Positions 1,062 to 15,343 of a stretch of 33,084 nucleotides of DNA are shown piece by piece. Source of the DNA: Chryseobacterium gleum (GTDB taxonomy: Bacteria; Bacteroidota; Bacteroidia; Flavobacteriales_D; Sanyastnellaceae); assembly GCA_943372555.1 (NCBI GenBank), contig CALRZB010000001.1, forward strand, positions 1-33,084, given 5' to 3'. Numbering within the stretch: the stretch's first letter is position 1; each line of letters begins with the position of its first letter. The notes beneath the pieces were generated by a model that made no database searches, was not told where the DNA came from, and worked only from the letters and a program-made list of their open reading frames with translations. Position numbers and translations under genes: made by a program.

Positions 1062-3707
1062 CTACTCCTTTTCCTGAAGCCATTTCGGTAATTTCTTTCC
1101 TTTTGTCGTCTCTTTCGAATTGTCTTGACCCTTTGGAGTCTCGGGCTGAGAAAGCTTTGGTTTAGGCTTCTCCTCTTGTTCCACAGGTGCCGCAGGATCA
1201 TTCTCCTCCCACTGAATTGTAGTAGTAGACTCTTGAACTGCAGGTTTCTCTTGGTAGGCACCAATAGTATTATCATTCTTAAATAGCCCGAATTCTTGTT
1301 TCAACAAGGCTTTCATATTTTGCTTTTCAGCAGCTATTTCCTCTTTTCTGATTTCCTTCGAAGCCTCCTTATCTATGCCGAATTCTGGCTTATCTGTTGT
1401 ACCGCGCATGTAGATGTAAAGCAATTTGCCCAACCCATCGTCTTGCTCTTGCCAATCTTGTGACTTCTTCACCAGAATATCGCGAAGTCTAAAACCAATG
1501 GTATAATCAATCACGTTATCGAATGTGTGCGTTCCAGAAGCAGAAATATCAAGCGCAGAAGACCGAATATCCATAAGAGGAATGTTGATCTTTCTGTCTT
1601 TGATCTCAATAATGTTTTCCAAATTAGAAAACTTGATATCCTTCATTCGCTCGGCAAACTTATCCTCATCCACAAATGGGGCTATAAGTTTGTTGCTCTT
1701 CAAATACTGCGCAATCTCTTGCAAAGATTCAAGACCAATCAACTGACCATTGGCAATACTGATGTCTATGATACTGTAAATATTATCTGTCTGAATGCGC
1801 AATTCCTTGCTCACTGGGGCTTTGAACTCAATGGATGCCGTGGCCTTACCGCGAAGATTTTGATCTGTAATAAACGTTTGACCGAAATTATCAAATTGAT
1901 AAAACATCTTCTGAATATTGATCTGATCAAACTTAGCAAAACAGGTTAAACCAAAACTATTGTCCGCTCGCTGAGCCAATTCTATCTGTGATAAAAATCC
2001 TCCTTCCGAAGTGTTAAACGAAACTGGGTCAATCCTGAACACTTGATTTTGTAATATCGCAACACCTGTAACATCAGTGGCTTCAAACTTCCCGAACATG
2101 AATTTTTTCACCTTCGTTTGAAGAGAGAAGTCTATAAATTCAGGTAGACTAAAGCTGTAATCACGATTGGAGTTGGTGCTCTCTTCTGTTTCCACAAGCT
2201 GTGTAAAGTCAATCAAATTAGAATTCAAAGTCGCTTCAACATTCAATCTTTCACTTCCACCAGCGATAAACGGAATCAAGTTTCGCAACGCCCCATTGAT
2301 AATAAAATCACTACCATTCACCTTGCCGTGCAGTCGTTGAACAACGGCATCTTTATTACTAAAAACTACTGTGGTAGCAAGATCCGTAAAGTCACGATTG
2401 GAGTTCTTTAGTTTCAATCGAGCTTGTGTGATTTCGCCTTTCCCATTCATATCGACAGAACCCAGAGGACCTTTAAAATCAGCCTGTGCATAGACACGAC
2501 CTTCGCAAACTTCGAGTGTATCCCAATTGAAAAACTTACTCAACTCGCTCATGCCTACATCCAATTTCAAATGCAAATCGGTATACGGGTTGTCCAAATG
2601 ATCGATTGTTCCATTCGCTTCTATCACGCCTCCTTCTAAAGATGCGCTGAACTTATCTAACTTCAATTGATCGTTTGAAGTTCCACGCAAATAGCTACCA
2701 TCAAATGTTATGGATGACAACGACACTCCCGTTTCATTGTGTTTCAAATTGCCTTCTTGAATAGAAAAATTGGCTTTGATATCAGGAGTCTTGCCTTCTC
2801 CTGCCAAGCCTTTCAGCGTGGCGTTGAACGACACTGTGCCGTCGGCATCGTAAACAGAAAGTTGGTCTCTATTCTCTCGCGGGAGTTTTGAAATGACATC
2901 AGACAAAGTCAAATTATCTCCTTCTATTCGAAGATCCATGTACGTCTGTTCGCTCACCGCTAAACTTCCGCCAAGAATGAAAGGCAGTTCATCAATAGAA
3001 ATCTTACATTCATTGATTGAGTACTTTCCCTCTTTGGTTTGCGCGTCAATCAAGGTTTCCAAGTCCACCTTTCTATTCGCAGCATATTCTGTTGAACCGC
3101 TTATCAGACTATTCACTTGGGCCTCCATATCGAGCTCAAGTTCAAATTGTTCAGACTCAAAACTGCCGCCTGCCTCGCTCTTGCTTGTTACCAAATCAAT
3201 GAAGAATTCTGATGATCGATCTTCGTAAACGATGTTGGCATTTTCAATTTCAATATTCTCTAAAGCCATTTTGAAACGGCTAGTATCGGATTCTTCTTCT
3301 TTTAGAAAGTGCCAGTTGTCCTCGCCTTTCTTATTCACCTTCATATAAGCTTTTGCTTCTTCCGCGCTGATTTTTTTGATGTCATAATTCCCCGAGAAAA
3401 CATCCATCAAGTCGAAGGACAGATATACCTTTTGGGAAAAAAACAGCGTGTCTTTTTCAGGAAATGTTTCTTGGATATAGACATCGGTGAATCGAATTGA
3501 GGCTTTTGGAAAGGTGTCCCAAAAGGTTAAATCCGCAGAACCGACGTTGGCTTTGGTTTTCAAACGATCGTTTAGCTTCGTTAAAGCATAACCTACTACA
3601 TCATCTTCATAGTAGCGTATAATTACGAAACCCGCGCCAATCAACAAGATTAGCACGATCAATAGGCCCAAAGCCACCCTTTTCGTTATGCGCCAGAACT
3701 TCTCCAT
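1062..3707 (-). CDS. AsmA-family-like large envelope protein with an N-terminal membrane anchor and a charged low-complexity C-terminal tail
   Basis: 881-aa ORF with an ATG at 3707. It has one N-terminal TM helix (VALGLLIVLILLIGAGFVII), then a long beta-rich body, then the tail KPKPKLSQPETPKGQDNSKETTKGKK. It ends 16 bp upstream of the rsmF-like ATG on the same strand. The family call rests on architecture, not on a diagnostic motif. Confidence 0.55.
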   Translation of the reverse strand: MEKFWRITKRVALGLLIVLILLIGAGFVIIRYYEDDVVGYALTKLNDRLKTKANVGSADLTFWDTFPKASIRFTDVYIQETFPEKDTLFFSQKVYLSFDLMDVFSGNYDIKKISAEEAKAYMKVNKKGEDNWHFLKEEESDTSRFKMALENIEIENANIVYEDRSSEFFIDLVTSKSEAGGSFESEQFELELDMEAQVNSLISGSTEYAANRKVDLETLIDAQTKEGKYSINECKISIDELPFILGGSLAVSEQTYMDLRIEGDNLTLSDVISKLPRENRDQLSVYDADGTVSFNATLKGLAGEGKTPDIKANFSIQEGNLKHNETGVSLSSITFDGSYLRGTSNDQLKLDKFSASLEGGVIEANGTIDHLDNPYTDLHLKLDVGMSELSKFFNWDTLEVCEGRVYAQADFKGPLGSVDMNGKGEITQARLKLKNSNRDFTDLATTVVFSNKDAVVQRLHGKVNGSDFIINGALRNLIPFIAGGSERLNVEATLNSNLIDFTQLVETEESTNSNRDYSFSLPEFIDFSLQTKVKKFMFGKFEATDVTGVAILQNQVFRIDPVSFNTSEGGFLSQIELAQRADNSFGLTCFAKFDQINIQKMFYQFDNFGQTFITDQNLRGKATASIEFKAPVSKELRIQTDNIYSIIDISIANGQLIGLESLQEIAQYLKSNKLIAPFVDEDKFAERMKDIKFSNLENIIEIKDRKINIPLMDIRSSALDISASGTHTFDNVIDYTIGFRLRDILVKKSQDWQEQDDGLGKLLYIYMRGTTDKPEFGIDKEASKEIRKEEIAAEKQNMKALLKQEFGLFKNDNTIGAYQEKPAVQESTTTIQWEENDPAAPVEQEEKPKPKLSQPETPKGQDNSKETTKGKKLPKWLQEKE

Positions 3708-8734: not shown

Positions 8735-9277
8735 CTACTGCGGTTTCCAAGGAATTTCTTCTGCGTTGAATTCAACAGTAAGTTTTCTAGAAAGTACAAA
8801 AAGATAATCCGACAATCGGTTCAAATAATGCATGATTAAGTCATCCACTTTTTCATGATCATTAAGTGCAGCTACGCAACGTTCCGCTCTACGGCAGATG
8901 GTGCGTGCGATGTGACAATGCGATACAACCACATTTCCTCCAGGAAGAATAAAATTACGCATCGGTTCGAGCGACTCATCCATTGTATCCATGGCAGTTT
9001 CTAGAGCAGTAACATCCGCTTCATGAATTTCCGGAAGTTTCATTTTTCCTTCATGCGAAGGGTCCACTGCAAGATGGCTGCCTAGGGTGAATAATCTATC
9101 TTGAATGAAAAGAAGAATGTCTTTGTGGGCTGGCGCAAGGTCGCGAAGAAGACCGAGGTAAGAGTTGAGTTCATCAACAGTACCATATGCCTCAATTCGC
9201 AAGTGATGCTTTGGAACGCGCGTACCGCCGAGTAATCCCGTTGTTCCGTCGTCGCCTTTCTTTGTGTAAATTTTCAT
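8735..9277 (-). CDS. ATP:cob(I)alamin adenosyltransferase, PduO type
   Basis: MKIYTKKGDDGTTGLLGGTRVPK is the canonical PduO-type N-terminus, and SDYLFVLSR lies near the C-terminus. I prefer the ATG at 9277 over the extended track start at 9307. Confidence 0.9.
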   Translation of the reverse strand: MKIYTKKGDDGTTGLLGGTRVPKHHLRIEAYGTVDELNSYLGLLRDLAPAHKDILLFIQDRLFTLGSHLAVDPSHEGKMKLPEIHEADVTALETAMDTMDESLEPMRNFILPGGNVVVSHCHIARTICRRAERCVAALNDHEKVDDLIMHYLNRLSDYLFVLSRKLTVEFNAEEIPWKPQ

Positions 9278-9367
9278 AAGCTCATTCTTTTCGAGTGCAA
9301 GATGCACAAGTTTTAGCGAAACAAAATCAAATTACGGTGAACACCGCGGGTAAATGCTCAATCAAAC

Positions 9368-9472
9368 CGACGACTAGTGACCAACGACTAGTGACTAGTG
9401 ACTAACGACTGGTGACTGGTGACCAACGACTAGTGACTAGTGACCGACGACCAGTGACCAATGATTAATTAC
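9368..9472. repeat. Tandem heptamer array, 15 units, consensus YRRYGAC (TAGTGAC / CAACGAC), with a 21-bp higher-order period
   Basis: It reads cgacgac tagtgac caacgac tagtgac tagtgac taacgac tggtgac tggtgac caacgac tagtgac tagtgac cgacgac cagtgac caatgat taattac. One -ACGAC unit is followed by two -GTGAC units, repeatedly. Confidence 0.95.
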
Positions 9473-9590
9473 TGAGGGAAGTTCTTTTAAATAAAATATT
9501 TCTCTCTGTGTAACTCTTTTATTCTCCTAAATCTCTGTGGCTAGAAAATGGGAAAATGAGAAAGAGAGGAAATGAGAAAGTGTAGAATCA

Positions 9591-9614
9591 CACCAACTAT
9601 CAAACTACCAAACT
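9591..9614. repeat. Short degenerate octamer array (caccaact atcaaact accaaact), the counterpart of the long ACCCCACT array in the inverted module
   Basis: It contains AACTATCAAACTACC (9595..9609), whose exact reverse complement occurs at 11514..11528. Confidence 0.7.
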
Positions 9615-9754
9615 AACTCACGAACCTCCTTCAATTCCTCTGAATAAATAGTAATTCGATCGCCAATCTCCAAAGGAAACGGACTCCAATCCTGCTGCCC
9701 AATAGACACATTCGACAACACAAGAAAACAAAACGATAAGAAAAGGTGTTTCAT
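9605..9754 (-). CDS. small ORF (49 aa) with an N-terminal signal peptide; either a secreted peptide or a gene remnant
   Basis: It is below the ORF-track length cut-off. The minus strand gives MKHLFLSFCFLVLSNVSIGQQDWSPFPLEIGDRITIYSEELKEVRELVW*. A perfect -7 box TATCTTTG lies 4 nt upstream of its ATG. The stop codon lies inside the degenerate octamer array. Confidence 0.35.
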   Translation of the reverse strand: MKHLFLSFCFLVLSNVSIGQQDWSPFPLEIGDRITIYSEELKEVRELVW

Positions 9755-9758
9755 GAAT

Positions 9759-9766
9759 CAAAGATA
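9759..9766 (-). promoter_or_regulatory. Bacteroidota -7 box TATCTTTG, 4 nt upstream of the small-ORF ATG
   Basis: The minus strand reads TATCTTTG-ATTC-ATG. Confidence 0.45.
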
Positions 9767-9768
9767 AC

Positions 9769-9810
9769 TACTGGTTACTGGATACTGGTTACTGGATACT
9801 AGTTACCCCA
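9769..9810. repeat. Tandem heptamer array TACTGGW, 6 units (14-bp alternation of tactggt and tactgga)
   Basis: It reads tactggt tactgga tactggt tactgga tactagt tacccca. It resembles the reverse orientation of the GTCACTG-type heptamers. Confidence 0.9.
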
Positions 9811-9858
9811 CGAACTCCCGACCCCTCGACCCCTCGACCCCACGACCCCTCGAACTTA
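9811..9858. repeat. Tandem octamer array CGACCCCT, 6 units (C4 tracts on the plus strand, G4 tracts on the minus strand)
   Basis: It reads cgaactcc cgacccct cgacccct cgacccca cgacccct cgaactta. It directly abuts the heptamer array on one side and the redoxin -7 box on the other. Confidence 0.9.
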
Positions 9859-9859
9859 C

Positions 9860-9867
9860 TATATTTG
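9860..9867 (+). promoter_or_regulatory. Bacteroidota -7 box TATATTTG upstream of the redoxin gene
   Basis: Exact TAnnTTTG match, 17 nt upstream of the ATG at 9885. Confidence 0.45.
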
Positions 9868-9884
9868 ACAAAATAAACGACAAC

Positions 9885-10523
9885 ATGAAAAAAGCACTCT
9901 ACATCTTCGGTGTGTTGGCAATTGGAATTGCTGCATACTCCTTTACTGTTGCTGATCCTGAAACATTGGCTATTGGTGCTGCTGCGCCTAAGACTGATCT
10001 TAAAATGGACGGTATCGATGGAAAATCAGTTTCACTTACCGACTTGAAAAAAGCAAACGGTCTTGCCGTTATTTTCTCAAGCAACACTTGTCCATTCGTT
10101 GTAGGCGCTGAAGGCTACGGCGAAGGCTGGGAAACACGTTATCTTGGTTTGCAAAAAGCAGCTGGAACATACAACGTTGGACTCGTTCTTATCAATAGCA
10201 ACGAAGCAAAACGTGCGAGTGGTGAAAGCATGGAAGACATGAAAAAAAGAGCTACAGAAAAGCGTTTCTCTAACGTGGCTTACCTACTTGACAAAAACTC
10301 TGAACTAGCAAACGCTTTCGGAGCGCGCACTACACCTCACGTATTCTTGTTTGATAAAGACATGAAATTAGTTTACCGTGGTGCTATCGACAACAACAAT
10401 GAAAGCGCTGCAAAAGTGACTGACTCATACCTGGAAAAAGCAATGATTAATCTTTCTCAAGGAAAAGCCATTAATCCAGCTGAAACTAAAGCAACAGGTT
10501 GCGGAATTAAGCGAGTTGGCTAA
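9885..10523 (+). CDS. secreted thioredoxin-fold (redoxin/AhpC-TSA-like) protein
   Basis: 212 aa. The signal peptide is MKKALYIFGVLAIGIAAYSF. The thioredoxin-fold pattern is VIFSSNTCPFV...ARTTPHVFLFDKDMKLVYRGAIDNN...GCGIK. Only one Cys is present at the usual CxxC position. Confidence 0.75.
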   Translation: MKKALYIFGVLAIGIAAYSFTVADPETLAIGAAAPKTDLKMDGIDGKSVSLTDLKKANGLAVIFSSNTCPFVVGAEGYGEGWETRYLGLQKAAGTYNVGLVLINSNEAKRASGESMEDMKKRATEKRFSNVAYLLDKNSELANAFGARTTPHVFLFDKDMKLVYRGAIDNNNESAAKVTDSYLEKAMINLSQGKAINPAETKATGCGIKRVG

Positions 10524-10531
10524 TCTGGGAC

Positions 10532-10539
10532 TATTTTTG
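10532..10539 (+). promoter_or_regulatory. Bacteroidota -7 box TATTTTTG, 4 nt upstream of the truB ATG
   Basis: The plus strand reads TATTTTTG-CCCC-ATG (ATG at 10544). Confidence 0.5.
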
Positions 10540-10543
10540 CCCC

Positions 10544-11281
10544 ATGATTCCTGTACCTAATTCTTTTGAATCGATAGAAGACATCCTCCAAGGAAGTGTT
10601 ATTATAGTTGACAAACCCCTTGAATGGACCAGTTTCGACGTTGTCGGAAGGTTGAAGTGGTTGATTCGCAGATATGGCAAAGCGCCCAAATTCAAAATTG
10701 GTCACGCAGGAACTCTAGATCCCTTAGCTAGCGGTCTTTTGGTAGTTTGCACCGGCAAATGCACCAAACAAATTCAAGACATACAAGGTGGAATGAAAGA
10801 GTACACAGGCACTATTCGCCTGGGACAAACAACACCGAGTTATGATCTAGAAACCGCACCAGAAGGCGATTTCCCTTACGAACATTATACAGAAGCCGAG
10901 CTCCTTGGAGTTGCGGCTTCTTTTATTGGTGAGCAATTGCAAACGCCTCCCATTTACTCTGCAAAACTCATCGATGGCAAACGCGCCTACGAATCTGCAC
11001 GTGCAGGAGTAGAAGTAGTAATGCGTCAGGCGCTTATTACGATCCATGAATTCGAGTTGACTCGCATTGCGCTCCCAGACATCGATTTCAAAATTCGATG
11101 CAGCAAAGGCACCTACATTCGGTCCATTGCACATGACTTCGGACAAAAACTAGGCGGCGGTTCGCACCTTGTGGCCTTACGCAGAACAGAATCAGCCCCA
11201 TTCCGCATCGAGAATGCATACGCTATGCAAGACCTCGAAGAAAAAATTCGCTCAATTTCTCCCTCAAAATCAGAGGATTAG
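10544..11281 (+). CDS. truB: tRNA pseudouridine(55) synthase
   Basis: It contains the catalytic Asp motif KIGHAGTLDPLASGLLVVCTG, plus YSAKLIDGKRAYE and GTYIRSIAHDFG. Confidence 0.93.
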   Translation: MIPVPNSFESIEDILQGSVIIVDKPLEWTSFDVVGRLKWLIRRYGKAPKFKIGHAGTLDPLASGLLVVCTGKCTKQIQDIQGGMKEYTGTIRLGQTTPSYDLETAPEGDFPYEHYTEAELLGVAASFIGEQLQTPPIYSAKLIDGKRAYESARAGVEVVMRQALITIHEFELTRIALPDIDFKIRCSKGTYIRSIAHDFGQKLGGGSHLVALRRTESAPFRIENAYAMQDLEEKIRSISPSKSED

Positions 11282-11386
11282 AAAAAACTTTTTTGAGAAC
11301 GTAACCTTAGGCCTTACAAACACCGTTAAAGACCCTGTAAGTTCTCATGTAGAGATATTAGATAGTTTAATTGTTTTCATTTATTA

Positions 11387-11418
11387 CCAAAAGGCCGCTC
11401 AACGGAGTGGCCTTTTGG
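11387..11418. terminator. Strong hairpin (14-bp stem with one G-U pair, 4-nt loop) with A4/T4 arms; candidate bidirectional intrinsic terminator downstream of truB
   Basis: It reads ccaaaaggccgctc-aacg-gagtggccttttgg. The T-run forms part of the 3' arm. Confidence 0.6.
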
Positions 11419-11423
11419 TATTG

Positions 11424-11527
11424 GGGGTAGTGGGGTAGTGGGGTAGTGGGGTAGTGAGGTAGTGGGGTAGTGAGGTAGTGGGGTCGTGGGGTAGTGGGGT
11501 AGTGGGGTAGTGGGGTAGTTTGATAGT
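11424..11527. repeat. Tandem octamer array GGGGTAGT, 12 units plus 1 degenerate unit
   Basis: ggggtagt x4, gaggtagt, ggggtagt, gaggtagt, ggggtcgt, ggggtagt x4, ttgatagt. This array generates the spurious PTTPLPHY ORFs in the track. Confidence 0.95.
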
Positions 11528-11532
11528 TAAAA

Positions 11533-11572
11533 CAAATGAACACAAGTGAACACAAATGCACCCAAATGAAAA
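11533..11572. repeat. Four tandem decamers CAARTGMAMM
   Basis: It reads caaatgaaca caagtgaaca caaatgcacc caaatgaaaa. Confidence 0.8.
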
Positions 11573-11578
11573 GAATCC

Positions 11579-11669
11579 GTCGTAGCTCACTAGTCACTGG
11601 TCGTTGGTCACTGGTCACTGGTAGTCGGTCGTCAGTCACTAGTCACCAGTCACCGGTCGTTAGTCCTTG
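11579..11669. repeat. Tandem heptamer array GTCRYYR, 13 units; the reverse complement of the 9368..9472 array type
   Basis: It reads gtcgtag ctcacta gtcactg gtcgttg gtcactg gtcactg gtagtcg gtcgtca gtcacta gtcacca gtcaccg gtcgtta gtccttg. Confidence 0.95.
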
Positions 11670-11736
11670 ACATTCGCTTTTAGATGTTGTACCTTCGCCC
11701 CCCAATTTTCTAAATCATAATACATTGATTTCAACC

Positions 11737-12789
11737 ATGAAGCTGGGTCAGTTTCGTTACAAACTGCCACCCGAACTAATTGCCCAGTACCCTGCAAAGC
11801 ATCGCGATGAGTCCCGCCTTATGGTGGTTCACAAGAGCACAGGTAAGATCGAGCACCGTATGTTCAAAGACATTCTCGATTACTTCGACGAAGGCGACGT
11901 AATGGTAAACAACAACACTCGCGTTTTCCCTGCTCGTATGTACGGCAACAAAGAGAAAACTGGTTCGATGATCGAAGTATTTATGCTCCGCGAATTGAAT
12001 GCTCAAAGCTTGCTTTGGGATACTGTTGTTGATCCAGCTCGTAAAATCCGTATCGGTAATAAACTTTACTTCGGTAAAAACGACGAACTCGTTGCCGAAG
12101 TCATCGACAATACTACTTCAAGAGGCCGCACATTGCGCTTCTTATTTGATGGTACACACGATGAGTTCAAAAAATTGATCTACGAACTAGGCGAAACTCC
12201 GCTTCCGAAGTACATCACTCGTCCTGTTGAACCTGAAGATGAATTCCGCTATCAGACAATCTACGCTAAGCACGAAGGTGCTGTAGCTGCGCCTACTGCT
12301 GGTCTTCACTTCAGTCGTGAGCTCTCAAAACGCCTTGAAATCAAGGGTATCAACATGGCAGAACTTACACTTCACATCGGACTCGGAACATTCCGCACCG
12401 TAGAAGTAGAAGATCTTACTAAGCACAAAACAGACAGCGAACAACTTATCATCCCTGCAGAAACTGCGGATATGGTAAACGAAGCGAAAGCAAATGGTCG
12501 TCGTGTATGTGCAGTTGGAACTACCGTTGTACGCGCCTTTGAAAGCAGTGTGAGCACAAATAATTTGCTTAAGCCATTCGACGGATGGAGCAGCAAATTC
12601 ATTTTCCCTCCATACGATTTTCAAATTGCAGATAGCTTGATCACGAATTTCCACGAACCAGAAAGTGTCTTGTTAATGACCACTACTGCTTTTGGAGGAT
12701 ATGATCTTGTGATGCAAGCATACCAAGAAGCTATCAAAGAAAAGTATCGTTTCTTCTGCTACGGAGATGCGTTGCTTATCTTGACCTAA
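11737..12789 (+). CDS. queA: S-adenosylmethionine:tRNA ribosyltransferase-isomerase
   Basis: [30 protein letters not shown] is the QueA N-terminus. Also present are AAPTAGLHF and [15 protein letters not shown] prefer the ATG at 11737 over the track's TTG at 11725. Confidence 0.93.
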
Positions 12790-12817
12790 TATTATTCTAC
12801 ATACAATACCAAAGAAC

Positions 12818-13222
12818 ATGAAAGCTGCGTCTATTCGCCTTTGCGTGACTTTGGTATTGTTTTTTTCTCTCAGTCACATCGCGATTTCTCAGTCGAGAAA
12901 ATCCGATCTCACTCTCGTTGGTAAAGCTCTATTCAAAGAAACAGTTGAAGGCAATCTTCAACCGAGAGCGTATGTTGCCACACATCTCAATAAAGACAAT
13001 CCAAGACTTGTTGCCATTGCGTTAGACGTATCGCTCGGCATCTTCGGCATGCACCGCATCTACCTCGGCACCGACGCCAAAGTTCCCGTGTTCTATACAT
13101 TGACACTAGGCGGCGGAATGGTGCTCTGGATCGCGGATCTAGTGCTCCTAATTACCACAGAGGACATCACTAAATTCATGAACAACCCGAATGTGTTCAT
13201 GTGGAATGAGAAGAAGCACTAA
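12818..13222 (+). CDS. TM2-domain membrane protein with an N-terminal signal peptide
   Basis: 134 aa. The two-helix segment GIFGMHRIYLGTDAKVPVFYTLTLGGGMVLWIADLVLLI matches the TM2 domain pattern (G.HRFYLG...D). Confidence 0.7.
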   Translation: MKAASIRLCVTLVLFFSLSHIAISQSRKSDLTLVGKALFKETVEGNLQPRAYVATHLNKDNPRLVAIALDVSLGIFGMHRIYLGTDAKVPVFYTLTLGGGMVLWIADLVLLITTEDITKFMNNPNVFMWNEKKH

Positions 13223-13230
13223 GTACGAGG

Positions 13231-15192
13231 TCAGCCCACATTCCGTAATAAAATCTCCCCTTTACCCTCTAACCTTTCCCCTATACAATCTCCCCTCTCC
13301 CCTTTACCCTCTACCCTATGCACAAACCCCTTGTGGTCTATGTACCCGCACCAACCTGTTACCAACCAACCATCATTGAATATTCGCTTTCCACCCTCAA
13401 TATTTTGATCCAATACTGCTGGTCCTTTTATTAATATCTCTCCCACTTCTCCACTTGGTAACTCAACCGAATAATCATTCGGTTTGCAAATCTTCACCGC
13501 CACACCTGGCAATGGCTTACCAATCGAATCGGCATCGCTAGCCTCCTGAAACAGCGGACGACCAACAATATCACTGGAATTGATGTTGAGCAAATTCACA
13601 GCAAACACTGACGACGATTCATTCAACCCAGCGCATGTCAACACTGATATACCTCTATTATTCAACGATTGTACTGTGGCATTCAACGGATGAATATCTG
13701 CTGTGAATATGTGTGTCAACTCTGCAATATTTCTCTTCTCCGCCAACGCGCTCACCGCTGTCAACTGCCCCGGACTCGCTATCACCAACTGGTGTGAACT
13801 ACCTGTCAAAGTGTTCGCAAACTGCTCGTCAGTCGCGCCGTTTGGAAGCATCTCTACCGAAAAGTCTGACATCAAGGGAAGCAAAAACTCTAACACAAAA
13901 CCAAAAGAATTATGCATCTCTAAATCACACAACATCGAACTTCCTTTATCAAAATGATACACCTGACGCAAACCAATAATCACCGCATTGATCTGCTGCT
14001 GATATACAGGAATCGCTCTTACCAACTCTCTTTTTTCTTTTTCAAAAAATAATGCAACTGGCAACTCGGCCTTCACTGAAGTGAACAATGACATCACTCG
14101 CTTGCGCGCCACTTTCAAATTCTTGCAAATCACATTCACAGGAACTCCTTTCTCCATCGACGCTTCCAACTCATCGATAAACACCACGGCATTCTCTGTC
14201 GGTGCCCAATGACTAAAATTGATGTCTTTCGTAGTAATCAATAACCCCGCATTCGAGCGATTGATCGCAAACAAACGCTGTTCGTTCGTCCAATTCGGAT
14301 CGATTGGAACAGTGGTTTTCTTATTCATCAATAACCACAAATAAATCAACATCGACTGTGGGCCTTTTGGCAATAAAACAGCCACTGTAGTTTCTTTCTC
14401 CAACGATTTTCCAAGGGCAGCGCCGAGCTTCGACAATTGCTCTGGCAAATTAGAATACGCATGTTTCTTTCCTTCATATTTCCAAAAACCAACAGGCTCA
14501 TTGCTCAACACGCGACCAATGCGATTGCTAATCGTTGGCTGATCCATCAAACGTTTCGAGAAATTCTCTACTTCCAATTCTTTGATGCATTGACGCAATG
14601 CAAATGCACTCACTCCACCTTTAATCGGCACACCCACGTTGATTCTCACTTTTCTGCGAAGCGTAGAAAAAGAAAAACGCAACATGTGCTTGCGACCAGC
14701 GCGATATGAAAACGGAGTTCCAGAAACATTATCAAAATGAATAGGAACAACTGGTCCGGTAATAAGCTTTGAAAGATGCTCAACACCTTTTTTAAACTCC
14801 AAAATTTGTCCTGTTCTAGAAACAGTGCCCTCAGCGAAGATGGCTACCAAGTATCCAGCATTCACTTGTTCCGAAACAGCTTTATTAAATAACTCGAAAT
14901 CGTTCTTGCCTGTGCGAGGAGAAATAGGAACGCAATTGAGCGCTTTCAATAAAGGACGTAGAAAAGGCTTTTTGTAGATATCGGCATTCATCACAAAACT
15001 CACCGGACGGGAATTAAGACATACCATCAATACGAAGTCCATGTAGCTAGTGTGATTGCCCACCAATAGCGCTCCTCCCTCTGAAGGGATGTTCGAAGCA
15101 CCAGTGATGCGAAGTCGATAGATGACTCTTCCTAGAAGTTTTACAAACGTTCTAAGGAATGCGGCTAGTAGGGTGATCATTATTGTTTTCAT
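13231..15192 (-). CDS. Aas-like fusion: an N-terminal lysophospholipid/1-acylglycerol-3-phosphate acyltransferase (PlsC family) joined to a degenerate, C-terminally truncated ANL (acyl-AMP-forming) domain
   Basis: The HX4D motif is GNHTSYMDF and a second acyltransferase block is FAEGTVSRTG. The C-terminal half shows ANL-like blocks GEVGEILIKGP and GWLVTGWCGYIDHKGF but no P-loop. I prefer the ATG at 15192 (MKTIMITLL...) over the TTG at 15225. The last ~25 codons lie in a repeat array. Confidence 0.75.
   Translation of the reverse strand: MKTIMITLLAAFLRTFVKLLGRVIYRLRITGASNIPSEGGALLVGNHTSYMDFVLMVCLNSRPVSFVMNADIYKKPFLRPLLKALNCVPISPRTGKNDFELFNKAVSEQVNAGYLVAIFAEGTVSRTGQILEFKKGVEHLSKLITGPVVPIHFDNVSGTPFSYRAGRKHMLRFSFSTLRRKVRINVGVPIKGGVSAFALRQCIKELEVENFSKRLMDQPTISNRIGRVLSNEPVGFWKYEGKKHAYSNLPEQLSKLGAALGKSLEKETTVAVLLPKGPQSMLIYLWLLMNKKTTVPIDPNWTNEQRLFAINRSNAGLLITTKDINFSHWAPTENAVVFIDELEASMEKGVPVNVICKNLKVARKRVMSLFTSVKAELPVALFFEKEKRELVRAIPVYQQQINAVIIGLRQVYHFDKGSSMLCDLEMHNSFGFVLEFLLPLMSDFSVEMLPNGATDEQFANTLTGSSHQLVIASPGQLTAVSALAEKRNIAELTHIFTADIHPLNATVQSLNNRGISVLTCAGLNESSSVFAVNLLNINSSDIVGRPLFQEASDADSIGKPLPGVAVKICKPNDYSVELPSGEVGEILIKGPAVLDQNIEGGKRIFNDGWLVTGWCGYIDHKGFVHRVEGKGERGDCIGERLEGKGEILLRNVG
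13255..13313. repeat. C-tract-rich array containing an exact 17-bp direct repeat CTCCCCTTTACCCTCTA (13255..13271 and 13297..13313), 42 bp apart
   Basis: Read directly from the sequence. The minus strand is G-tract rich (ggg/gggg every ~8 nt). It encodes the duplicated EGKGE in the tail of the Aas-like ORF. Confidence 0.85.
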
Positions 15193-15343
15193 GGAGCAAA
15201 TAACATTCACGCCTTCTCGCTCCAAAAGTCTTCTTTCAAAATAAACGTAGTTTTACTTTTTCCTTAAAATATCCCATAAATACTGTAATAAATATCTTTT
15301 CTTCCTATATTCATCTTTCAAAACGTAGTTTAAAAAGCACTAA

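Follow-up and report, generated by a model that had tools for sequence, protein, structure and literature searches.

What does a tandem array of G-rich octamers do behind a tRNA-modification gene? The question is posed by the 33,084-nt stretch of DNA analysed here (the window; contig CALRZB010000001.1 of assembly GCA_943372555.1, contig C1 in our numbering), in which such an array lies at 11424-11519, between truB (tRNA pseudouridine synthase B) and queA. An initial annotation, made from the letters alone, had proposed that this array and two others in the window are strong G-quadruplex (G4) candidates that could act as transcription or replication barriers, RNA 3′-end structures or recombination hot spots. 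The sequence rule and G4Hunter scoring agree in making all three arrays strong predicted quadruplex candidates; a function of the G4 is, however, not supported. The truB array opens an ordered octamer-decamer-heptamer mosaic, which appears to be lineage-specific and dispersed over the genome, and its ability to form a quadruplex is probably a by-product and not the property under selection. The source genome (G000 below) is a fragmented freshwater Flavobacteriales metagenome-assembled genome (MAG) of 2.43 Mb in 266 contigs with 40.2% G+C, and its TruB is 98-99% identical to proteins from lake and stream Flavobacteriales/Bacteroidota MAGs. The locus is laid out as follows:

10544..11281, plus strand: truB, an open reading frame (ORF) with the TAG stop codon at 11279-11281 (Pfam TruB_N 1.2e-45, TruB_C_2 5.1e-10)
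11385..11420, plus strand: terminator-type hairpin predicted by RNA folding, with a 16-bp stem, an A-tract/T-tract extension, the loop AACG and a T-run at 11413-11416
11424..11519, plus strand: octamer array of 12 units, the G-rich strand being the truB sense strand (Tandem Repeats Finder (TRF), sequence, G4Hunter)
11520..11531, plus strand: degenerate octamer units of non-G4 type, then the junction TTGATAGTTAAAAC, which leads to the decamers and is met again at other loci (sequence)
11532..11570, plus strand: decamer array ACAAATGAAC, 3.9 units, second module of the mosaic (TRF; ~25 genomic copies by blastn)
11579..11665, plus strand: heptamer arrays GTCACYR/GTCGTYG, third module of the mosaic (TRF), an imperfect hairpin as RNA, not as DNA
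11725..12789, plus strand: queA (S-adenosylmethionine:tRNA ribosyltransferase-isomerase), downstream of the mosaic (Pfam Queuosine_synth 3.3e-134)

TRF assigns the octamer array a period of 8, 12.0 copies, 93% matches and a score of 171, with the consensus GGGGTAGT. This sequence is found in nine units, two units read GAGGTAGT (units 5 and 7) and one reads GGGGTCGT (unit 8). The twelve annotated units are real, but the twelve G4 tracts ascribed to them are not: GGGG occurs in 10/12 units, in blocks of 4, 1 and 5, and GAGG in 2/12. Within the blocks of four and five the tracts are separated by 4-nt loops, and two separate canonical quadruplex motifs lie in the array (11423-11451 and 11480-11515). 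Its mean G4Hunter score is +1.89, compared with -1.85 for a second array at 9805-9853 and -1.58 for a third at 13254-13317, and no 25-nt window of the 33 kb other than at these three G-rich arrays reaches an absolute score of 1.5. The arrays do stand out, as had been noted, although the window as a whole, at ~40-46% G+C, is only moderately AT-rich. Three GGGGN4 units followed by GGGG have four matches in the window versus 0.00 in 100 dinucleotide shuffles, and folding of the RNA 11380-11730 with ViennaRNA and quadruplex energies predicts two four-layer G4s, with a minimum free energy of -140.8 kcal/mol as against -112.8 kcal/mol without them. The isolated scores and the predicted RNA structures both speak for a functional quadruplex, i.e. 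for DNA or RNA G4s that act as a transcription or replication barrier, back up the truB terminator or protect the RNA 3′ end.

The terminator is nevertheless already there. The hairpin stem (11385-11420) folds at -26.9 kcal/mol (z = -7.46, with 0/200 shuffles as good), begins 103 nt behind the truB TAG and, as a G+C-rich hairpin with a T-run at a gene 3′ end, has the make-up of an intrinsic terminator; a simple terminator scan missed it and folding revealed it. The array had been placed 6 nt after this hairpin, a distance that applies to the T-run, whereas only 3 nt separate it from the extended stem. The array itself is not an intrinsic terminator, as it holds no hairpin and is located past the T-run. 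Nor does its position, behind a terminator and 205 nt ahead of queA, fit a phase-variation repeat. An Rfam search of 9200-13500 returned nothing at E <= 1. The complement of the array is an open frame and gives rise to a spurious 90-aa ORF (11367-11639).

Genome-wide, TRF yields 920 rows, which merge into 599 clusters and cover 1.2% of the 2.43 Mb. Periods 7 (220 rows), 8 (102) and 10 (30), together with their multiples, dominate, and their 449 clusters comprise 323 intergenic ones, 67 partly intergenic ones and 59 within ORFs, which make up 92% of the DNA (gene calls here being crude longest-ORF calls made without a gene finder). The octamer units form one family, YRGTKDGR, whose variable half holds GGGG in a minority: the commonest TRF rows are GGTAGTTT (18), GATAGTTT (15), GGTAGTGT (12), the GGGGTCGT type (10), the GGGGTTGT type (6) and GGGGTAGT (5). 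After merging, there are 99 octamer arrays, of which 26 are G4-type (at least four tracts of three or more G), 72 are non-G4 and one could not be oriented, so that units such as GGTAGTTT or GGTAGTGT occupy the same slots in 72/99 arrays. Quadruplex motifs are found at 38 merged loci, 7 of them within crude ORFs.

The placement of the octamer arrays was counted on ORFs re-called after repeat masking, with each array oriented by its G-rich strand and a limit of 60 nt to the gene:

Non-G4 arrays: at gene 3′ ends, G strand sense in 43 and antisense in 10 (p 6e-6); at 5′ ends, antisense in 12 and sense in 1
G4-type arrays: at gene 3′ ends, G strand sense in 9 and antisense in 4 (not significant); at 5′ ends, antisense in 11 and sense in 0

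The initial annotation had held that a random distribution with respect to strand and gene ends, together with oligonucleotides that show no K+-dependent G4 signature or polymerase stop, would speak against its reading; the octamer arrays, 99 of them genome-wide, are placed non-randomly in both respects, and the rule is clearest for the non-G4 units. A link to the replication strand was not seen: by local GC skew, a rough measure on short contigs, the G strand lies on the positive-skew strand in 35/72 non-G4 and 15/26 G4 arrays. The positional rule equals that of the G-rich heptamers described by Rehm et al. (2015), GGGNATC in Xanthomonas and GGGGA(C/T)T in Nostoc, which form G4s in K+ by circular dichroism (CD) and are reported to lie up to 50 bp from an ORF, on the sense strand if they follow its stop and on the antisense strand if they precede it (PMC4692102). 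Our arrays follow it with the 60-nt limit used here in place of ~50 bp. This likeness to a class with CD-proven G4s is a further argument for a functional quadruplex, as is the statement in that paper that Xanthomonas transcripts start or stop more at G4-forming than at control repeats (PMC4692102). That non-G4 units fill 72/99 arrays and obey the rule more strictly argues against it.

A sense-strand gene stop lies within 60 nt of the array 5′ edge in 52/99 octamer arrays, the stop is TAG in 36/52 of these genes compared with 376/1909 genome-wide (20%; p 1e-14), and the stop-to-array gaps concentrate at -5 to +3 nt. From the TAG excess and these gaps it follows that the arrays often provide the stop codon of the neighbouring gene, i.e. 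that in many cases the array itself supplies it. On the G/T-rich strand TAG recurs at 8-nt intervals, so that every reading frame runs into a stop within 24 nt. In the 36 genes the TAG stop belongs to the first array unit; examples are found on contigs C199 (1589), C46 (4670) and C253 (2828).

Comparison with relatives shows how quickly G4 units come and go. An identical 30-nt truB hairpin is present in six other alleles (L001, L002 and four metagenome contigs), in which it is followed by four different sequences and in 0/6 by a G4 array; L002 has kept the mosaic without G4 units and carries 20 heptamers, compared with ~11 in the source genome. The second array, at a redoxin gene, has ~6 units in the source genome and 11 in L002, and in the relative G006 only three C3-4 tracts remain (a quadruplex needs four), followed by a full mosaic. 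The third array, at an Aas-like gene, is shared by G007; G006 has non-repeat sequence in its place. Behind mutS, the source genome has four G-tracts and G007 non-G4 GATAGTTT/GGTAGTGT units, and two arrays on contig C178 lack a G4-capable counterpart in G007. Taken together, a G4-capable array is kept in 3/14 locus-by-relative comparisons, an opportunistic set of loci with relatives' DNA of which 6 come from one locus, while the flanking genes are 82-97% identical.

Within arrays the picture is the same. Across 16 G4-type arrays, with 92 units passing a register filter, deviations affect 33/368 loop cells and 29/368 G-tract cells (Fisher p 0.69), the commonest change within tracts being G>A (17 times); in the truB array, 2/12 units already read GAGG. 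The numbers of runs of k = 2, 3, 4, 5 and 6 consecutive tracts are 20, 7, 9, 5 and 2. The small bump at four (7, 9 and 5 for k = 3, 4 and 5) could be taken as a sign of quadruplex function, but it is common to the whole unit family, in which runs of k = 3, 4 and 5 number 21, 23 and 5. Turnover, tract mutation and run lengths thus give no pointer to selection for quadruplex capacity. The claim that the G4 is what matters at these sites is not supported by this evidence: non-G4 arrays follow the rule more strongly, the array is missing from 6/6 other truB alleles and in the window stands behind a strong hairpin in any case, capacity is rarely retained and tracts are no better conserved than loops. 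We therefore regard a functional quadruplex as unlikely.

The octamers do not stand alone. At 29 loci, identified by blastn with the junction and decamers, octamers precede decamers, which lead into heptamers or, at some loci that lie between convergent genes, into a short loop with inverted decamers and octamers; the junction pattern TAGTTAAAMCAAATGMAC has 9 matches in the source genome. This architecture invites an explanation at the RNA level, in which the whole mosaic is transcribed behind genes as a 3′-UTR or intergenic module, the G4 variant being incidental: the GU-rich octamers would be a single-stranded platform, and the heptamers or facing decamers a hairpin that ends or stabilises transcripts, similar to enterobacterial repetitive extragenic palindromes (REPs) and bacterial interspersed mosaic elements (BIMEs). 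Several observations are in its favour. The element has polarity, following the 3′ end of a same-strand 5′-side gene in 17/26 core loci with a called gene, and many arrays start a few nt from the stop with no other hairpin between. The heptamer array 11579-11665 folds as RNA at -27.4 kcal/mol (z -3.28), and a DNA hairpin could be ruled out (z -0.07); it folds better than shuffles only as RNA because G-U pairs are used. Facing decamer arrays between convergent genes form long RNA hairpins, with z values at six loci of -10.6, -9.6, -6.0, -3.7, -2.3 and -1.4. Against it, two of these six are not beyond shuffles (z > -2.5), a canonical terminator already stands ahead of the mosaic at truB, module length and presence vary freely among relatives, there is no Rfam match, and contigs from RNA libraries carry octamer and decamer pieces of other loci and may be DNA. 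We consider an RNA module doubtful, though not far-fetched. A further reading, in which the modules in their fixed order would work as a cassette at gene ends, with three-frame stops, an RNA hairpin as its last module and a G4 allele that stalls polymerases, strikes us as improbable.

Mosaic elements at gene ends also recall the REP/BIME systems reviewed by Di Nocera et al. (2013), which are described there as mosaic intergenic elements that lie at gene 3′ ends or between convergent genes, bear a GTAG tag and have been suggested to act in mRNA stability and termination (PMC3733652). The octamer arrays differ from these in being direct repeats without a palindrome that do not flank a REP-associated tyrosine transposase (RAYT), and they are not members of the class. 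A separate, true REP/RAYT pair does exist in the source genome, on contig C9, and it raises the question of whether the octamers, as GGTAGTNN, are the tandem-amplified GGTAG tail of the REPs of this genome, moved by a Y1 transposase (the RAYT). Such an origin would account for the scattered copies as well as for the GTAG half, which is the conserved part of the unit. Two Y1_Tnp genes are present in the genome, of which one (contig C9, 7073-7609) lies between inverted REPs of the form GCCCC-N3-4-GGGGC plus G(C/T)ATTA(C/T)GGTAG. Among 28 REP cores, the GGTAG/CTACC tail is present in 17, and 12 of the 28 have a repeat cluster no more than 60 nt away, the tail running into an octamer array at C35 13270, C65 10713 and C152 3119. 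REPs end in GTAG, the motif cleaved by the E. coli RAYT (PMC3733652), and a strong Y1_Tnp match is present in all three mosaic-bearing genomes. However, Y1_Tnp matches occur in G002, G008, G025 and G028 as well, and the search for the mosaic junction gave none in these genomes; GTAG occurs in only ~39/102 period-8 TRF consensus units, the rest having GTCG, GTTG, ATAG or ACAG; the octamer arrays are non-palindromic and no REP lies next to the window arrays; and the same units recur in further phyla. On balance a REP/RAYT origin is highly unlikely. The survey cited has GTAG-tagged REPs from other phyla, its Bacteroidetes entries being CGTC-tagged only (PMC3733652). The Y1 transposase region spans 6700-8100 on contig C9, and a further site lies on contig C131 (1508-1846).

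How widely are these repeats distributed? A search of 41 relatives recovered the mosaic junction in four, namely G000 (9 matches), G006 (4), G007 (14) and G009 (one, with one mismatch); the first three are fragmented MAGs, 69-85% complete and in 266-370 contigs. Four phased G4N4 units are found in 6/41 genomes, the matches in G016 being mostly poly-G runs. Other genomes of the genus have some heptamer or octamer arrays with different units, in a sample partly biased to matching contigs. The units themselves reach much further. The exact run (GGGGTAGT)3GGGG is found at 19 loci, 12 of them in Microcystis, where similar mosaics contain other octamers and CAGTNAY heptamers; (GGTAGTTT)n occurs at 25 loci, including Photobacterium, Chloroflexota and Flavobacteriales, and (GTCACYA)n at >=121, i.e. 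at least 121, loci in many phyla. Exact (GTCACYA)n or (GGTAGTTT)n arrays were seen in Dialister, Planctomycetes, Cyanobacteria, Photobacterium, Chloroflexota and others. A special link to Microcystis, such as transfer from bloom cyanobacteria, was considered and is weakened, since units that are cosmopolitan across many phyla argue against it.

Several known repeat classes bear on this distribution. Judged by its sequence, the truB array is an octamer member, in Flavobacteriales, of the Rehm-type G-rich repeat class: its unit falls within 6-9 nt and has at least 3 G, there are at least 4 consecutive tracts, copies are many and mostly non-coding, and unit number varies (12 vs 0 at truB, ~6 vs 11 at the redoxin gene). 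Those heptamers are likewise reported as genome-wide, enriched between genes and variable in unit number among close relatives, with no established function (PMC4692102). Dispersed intergenic G-tract tandem units, the positional rule and the variable unit number are thus held in common, whereas the unit here has 8 nt (a tract of four G and a loop of 4 nt), the host belongs to the Flavobacteriales, and G4 units are a minority allele within an ordered octamer-decamer-heptamer mosaic with no clear G4-specific preference for four units. Rearrangements are seen at array edges here, whereas increased stability near repeats is reported there (PMC4692102).

Bartas et al. (2019) found perfect quadruplex repeats in Microcystis aeruginosa, a G4Hunter outlier, with (GGGGTGT)58 as an example, which is reported without a context analysis (PMC6539912). 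Long perfect G4 arrays, a bacterium of ~40% G+C, mosaics and an exact unit run are common to both cases, but the host phylum differs and the shared units are not specific to this taxon pair. More generally, the arrays belong to the long simple sequence repeats with 5-11-nt units, as they are longer than chance and show a genome-wide excess of periods 7, 8 and 10. This class, described by Mrazek et al. (2007) and cited here via PMC4679880, is dominated by heptamers, found in many phyla and attributed to polymerase slippage. Tandem repeats beyond chance length, scattered over phyla, are the common ground; the class is a statistical one and, as summarised in that source, comes without an ordered mosaic or a statement on G4s. 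MacGregor (2015) described intergenic TAACTGA heptamers in Beggiatoaceae, Cyanobacteria and five Bacteroidetes (PMC4679880). They resemble our arrays in having identical units in unrelated phyla, including Flavobacteriia and Microcystis, an orientation tied to ORFs, and relatives without arrays at the same spacers, and differ, on that account, in lying mainly just before start codons, with 2-6 units of other sequence and no G-tracts (PMC4679880).

The octamer arrays also work like the cyanobacterial short tandemly repeated repetitive sequences (STRRs) without being members, their unit having 8 nt and their host belonging to the Flavobacteriales. STRRs, defined in heterocystous cyanobacteria, are dispersed intergenic tandem heptamers that are hypervariable and used in strain typing. 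The open-access literature on STRR and heptanucleotide repeats and on Microcystis short tandem repeats offered little of use, and we found no description of the present arrays in Flavobacteriales in that literature, which is not proof of absence.

The other two G-rich arrays of the window and their neighbours are as follows:

8735-9307, minus strand: cobalamin adenosyltransferase gene (Pfam)
9372..9458, unstranded: heptamer array GACTAGT/GACCAAC, outside the cobalamin adenosyltransferase gene on its 5′ side (TRF)
9595..9615, minus strand: non-G4 octamer array AACTACCA (reading GGTAGTTT on the minus strand), which borders a stretch deleted here in comparison with L002 (TRF)
9617..9755, minus strand: esterase gene remnant, ~first 45 codons, intact in L002 (blastn)
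9769..9806, unstranded: heptamer array TACTGGT/TACTGGA (TRF)
9805..9853, minus strand: second G4-type octamer array, with minus-strand units GGGGTCGA/GGGGTCGT/GGGAGTTCGT (TRF; G4Hunter -1.85)
9860..9867, plus strand: TATATTTG behind the redoxin array (sequence)
9885..10523, plus strand: thioredoxin-fold (Redoxin/AhpC-TSA) gene (Pfam)
13231..15225, minus strand: Aas-like acyltransferase + AMP-binding gene (Pfam)
13254..13317, minus strand: third G-rich array, heptamers GGGTAGA/GGGTAAA/GGGGAGA on the minus strand (TRF periods 14/21/35; G4Hunter -1.58)

The second array, annotated near 9811..9858 as G-rich on the minus strand, was recovered as 9805-9853 with TRF periods 8/16/24; its units are C-rich on the plus strand. 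It immediately precedes the redoxin gene, and its C-rich strand is the coding strand. The sequence TATATTTG right behind it is retained at this position in L002 and G006 and matches the Bacteroidetes -7 promoter box (TAnnTTTG), for which it is a candidate. The array does not have the position expected of a phase-variation repeat either, as it would lie upstream of the putative -7 box and, being periodic, would keep that spacing.

The third array is G-rich on the minus strand, as annotated near 13255..13313, but it is built from heptamers and not octamers, and it falls inside the Aas-like ORF, where it encodes ~the last 20 residues. The Aas-like protein has 664 residues and its relatives' frames have 640-650 aa, matching up to residues 637-644. 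Truncation of the gene at the array could thus be ruled out, and the array is a C-terminal extension. The ~20-residue extension is also present in G007, whereas the tail in G006 is shorter and non-repeat. The G006 homologue (L092, contig C38 476-2357) shows three in-frame TGA and one TAA in the search output and may be a pseudogene or a sequence with assembly errors.

Array edges coincide with rearrangements. Homology to L001 stops at 11422, one base ahead of the G-run that opens the truB array; homology to L002 stops at 13228, by the third array, and resumes at 9617, by the AACTACCA array. A deletion bounded by the latter has removed most of the esterase gene in the window, while L002 has an intact putative esterase (1362-2171, minus strand; Pfam Esterase (PF00756) 1.9e-24). 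The G007 sequence departs right after the Aas-like array, and G006 has ~1 kb of additional genes at the far edge of the array on contig C95. The recombination hot spots of the initial annotation would fit such synteny breaks at array edges, but the array-free spacers in the compared region, at only 20-28 nt, are too short for a proper control. An inversion also separates G007 (L069, contig C70) from contig C46 1-4852 of the source genome, the genes being ~88-91% identical, and one of its breakpoints lies at an octamer-decamer-heptamer mosaic (C46 4670-4852). Downstream of truB, other alleles contain an element with a core like GGTYCCTGAG...ATCGAARGA (L082 630-850, L001 1300-1340, L085 700-760, L068 7500-7540), which in L082 consists of four ~45-nt tandem units, each with a CTTGCGAAGCAAG palindrome.

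The arrays have left their mark on the assemblies as well. None of the assembled contigs of four public runs spans an array, unitigs break inside arrays, and the summed contig depth of the bin holding the G4 array is ~10x that of the adjoining truB bins because copies lie elsewhere. Arrays were also seen at contig ends (C266 179-254, C258 49-92, C106 177-206 and C120 8073-8116). The repeats probably fragment these assemblies.

How could such a family arise? In the account we favour, a mosaic of short tandem repeats would fill the gene spacers of this Flavobacteriales clade, and its arrays would grow, shrink and switch unit through slipped-strand replication, a mechanism proposed in the literature, and point mutation. 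That the repeats grew because mismatch repair was lost could be ruled out, MutS1 and MutL being above cut-off in 15/15 genomes including G000, G006 and G007. As related copies at 29 loci share the junction, the mosaic would also have been copied between loci by some route as well as slippage. GGGG would be one allele of the variable half of YRGTKDGR, which would make quadruplex ability a by-product. Placement would reflect the tolerance of a compact genome: at a gene end or immediately after it, the sense orientation would be harmless, whereas the opposite one would extend the protein, a cost illustrated by the ~20 residues that the third array adds to the Aas-like protein, and upstream of genes the C-rich strand would face the gene. 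Indels, deletions and synteny breaks at array edges among close relatives would be a side effect.

Several points weigh against this account. The upstream/antisense class comprises 11/20 placed G4-type but only 12/55 non-G4 arrays (Fisher p 0.01), an excess for which it does not account. The C95 G4 array is retained between G000 and G006, and the low rate of G4 retention comes from the opportunistic set of comparisons mentioned above. The positional rule is significant and equals the Rehm rule, and the arrays may thus have a function at gene ends. Finally, the recurrence of identical units across many phyla is not predicted by pure slippage of arbitrary sequence.

The arrays are best regarded as fast-evolving members of a known repeat class without established function and not dedicated devices of the three genes next to which they lie. 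To this class they add that non-G4 units share the slots and the rule of the G4 units, that the modules have a fixed order, and that TAG is frequently supplied. If the mosaic did prove to be a gene-end cassette, genes could be cut, joined and shuffled at cassettes without read-through, and the clade, together with the phyla sharing the units, would possess built-in recombination and termination joints. If the ordinary reading is right, the lesson is one of caution: as non-G4 members of the family behave alike, high G4 scores at gene boundaries in such genomes should not be read as regulatory quadruplexes. The repeat arrays would also explain why these lake Flavobacteriales assemble poorly, and, for the specialist, the interest lies in arrays that often furnish the stop codon of a gene and in identical 7- and 8-nt units that recur across phyla.

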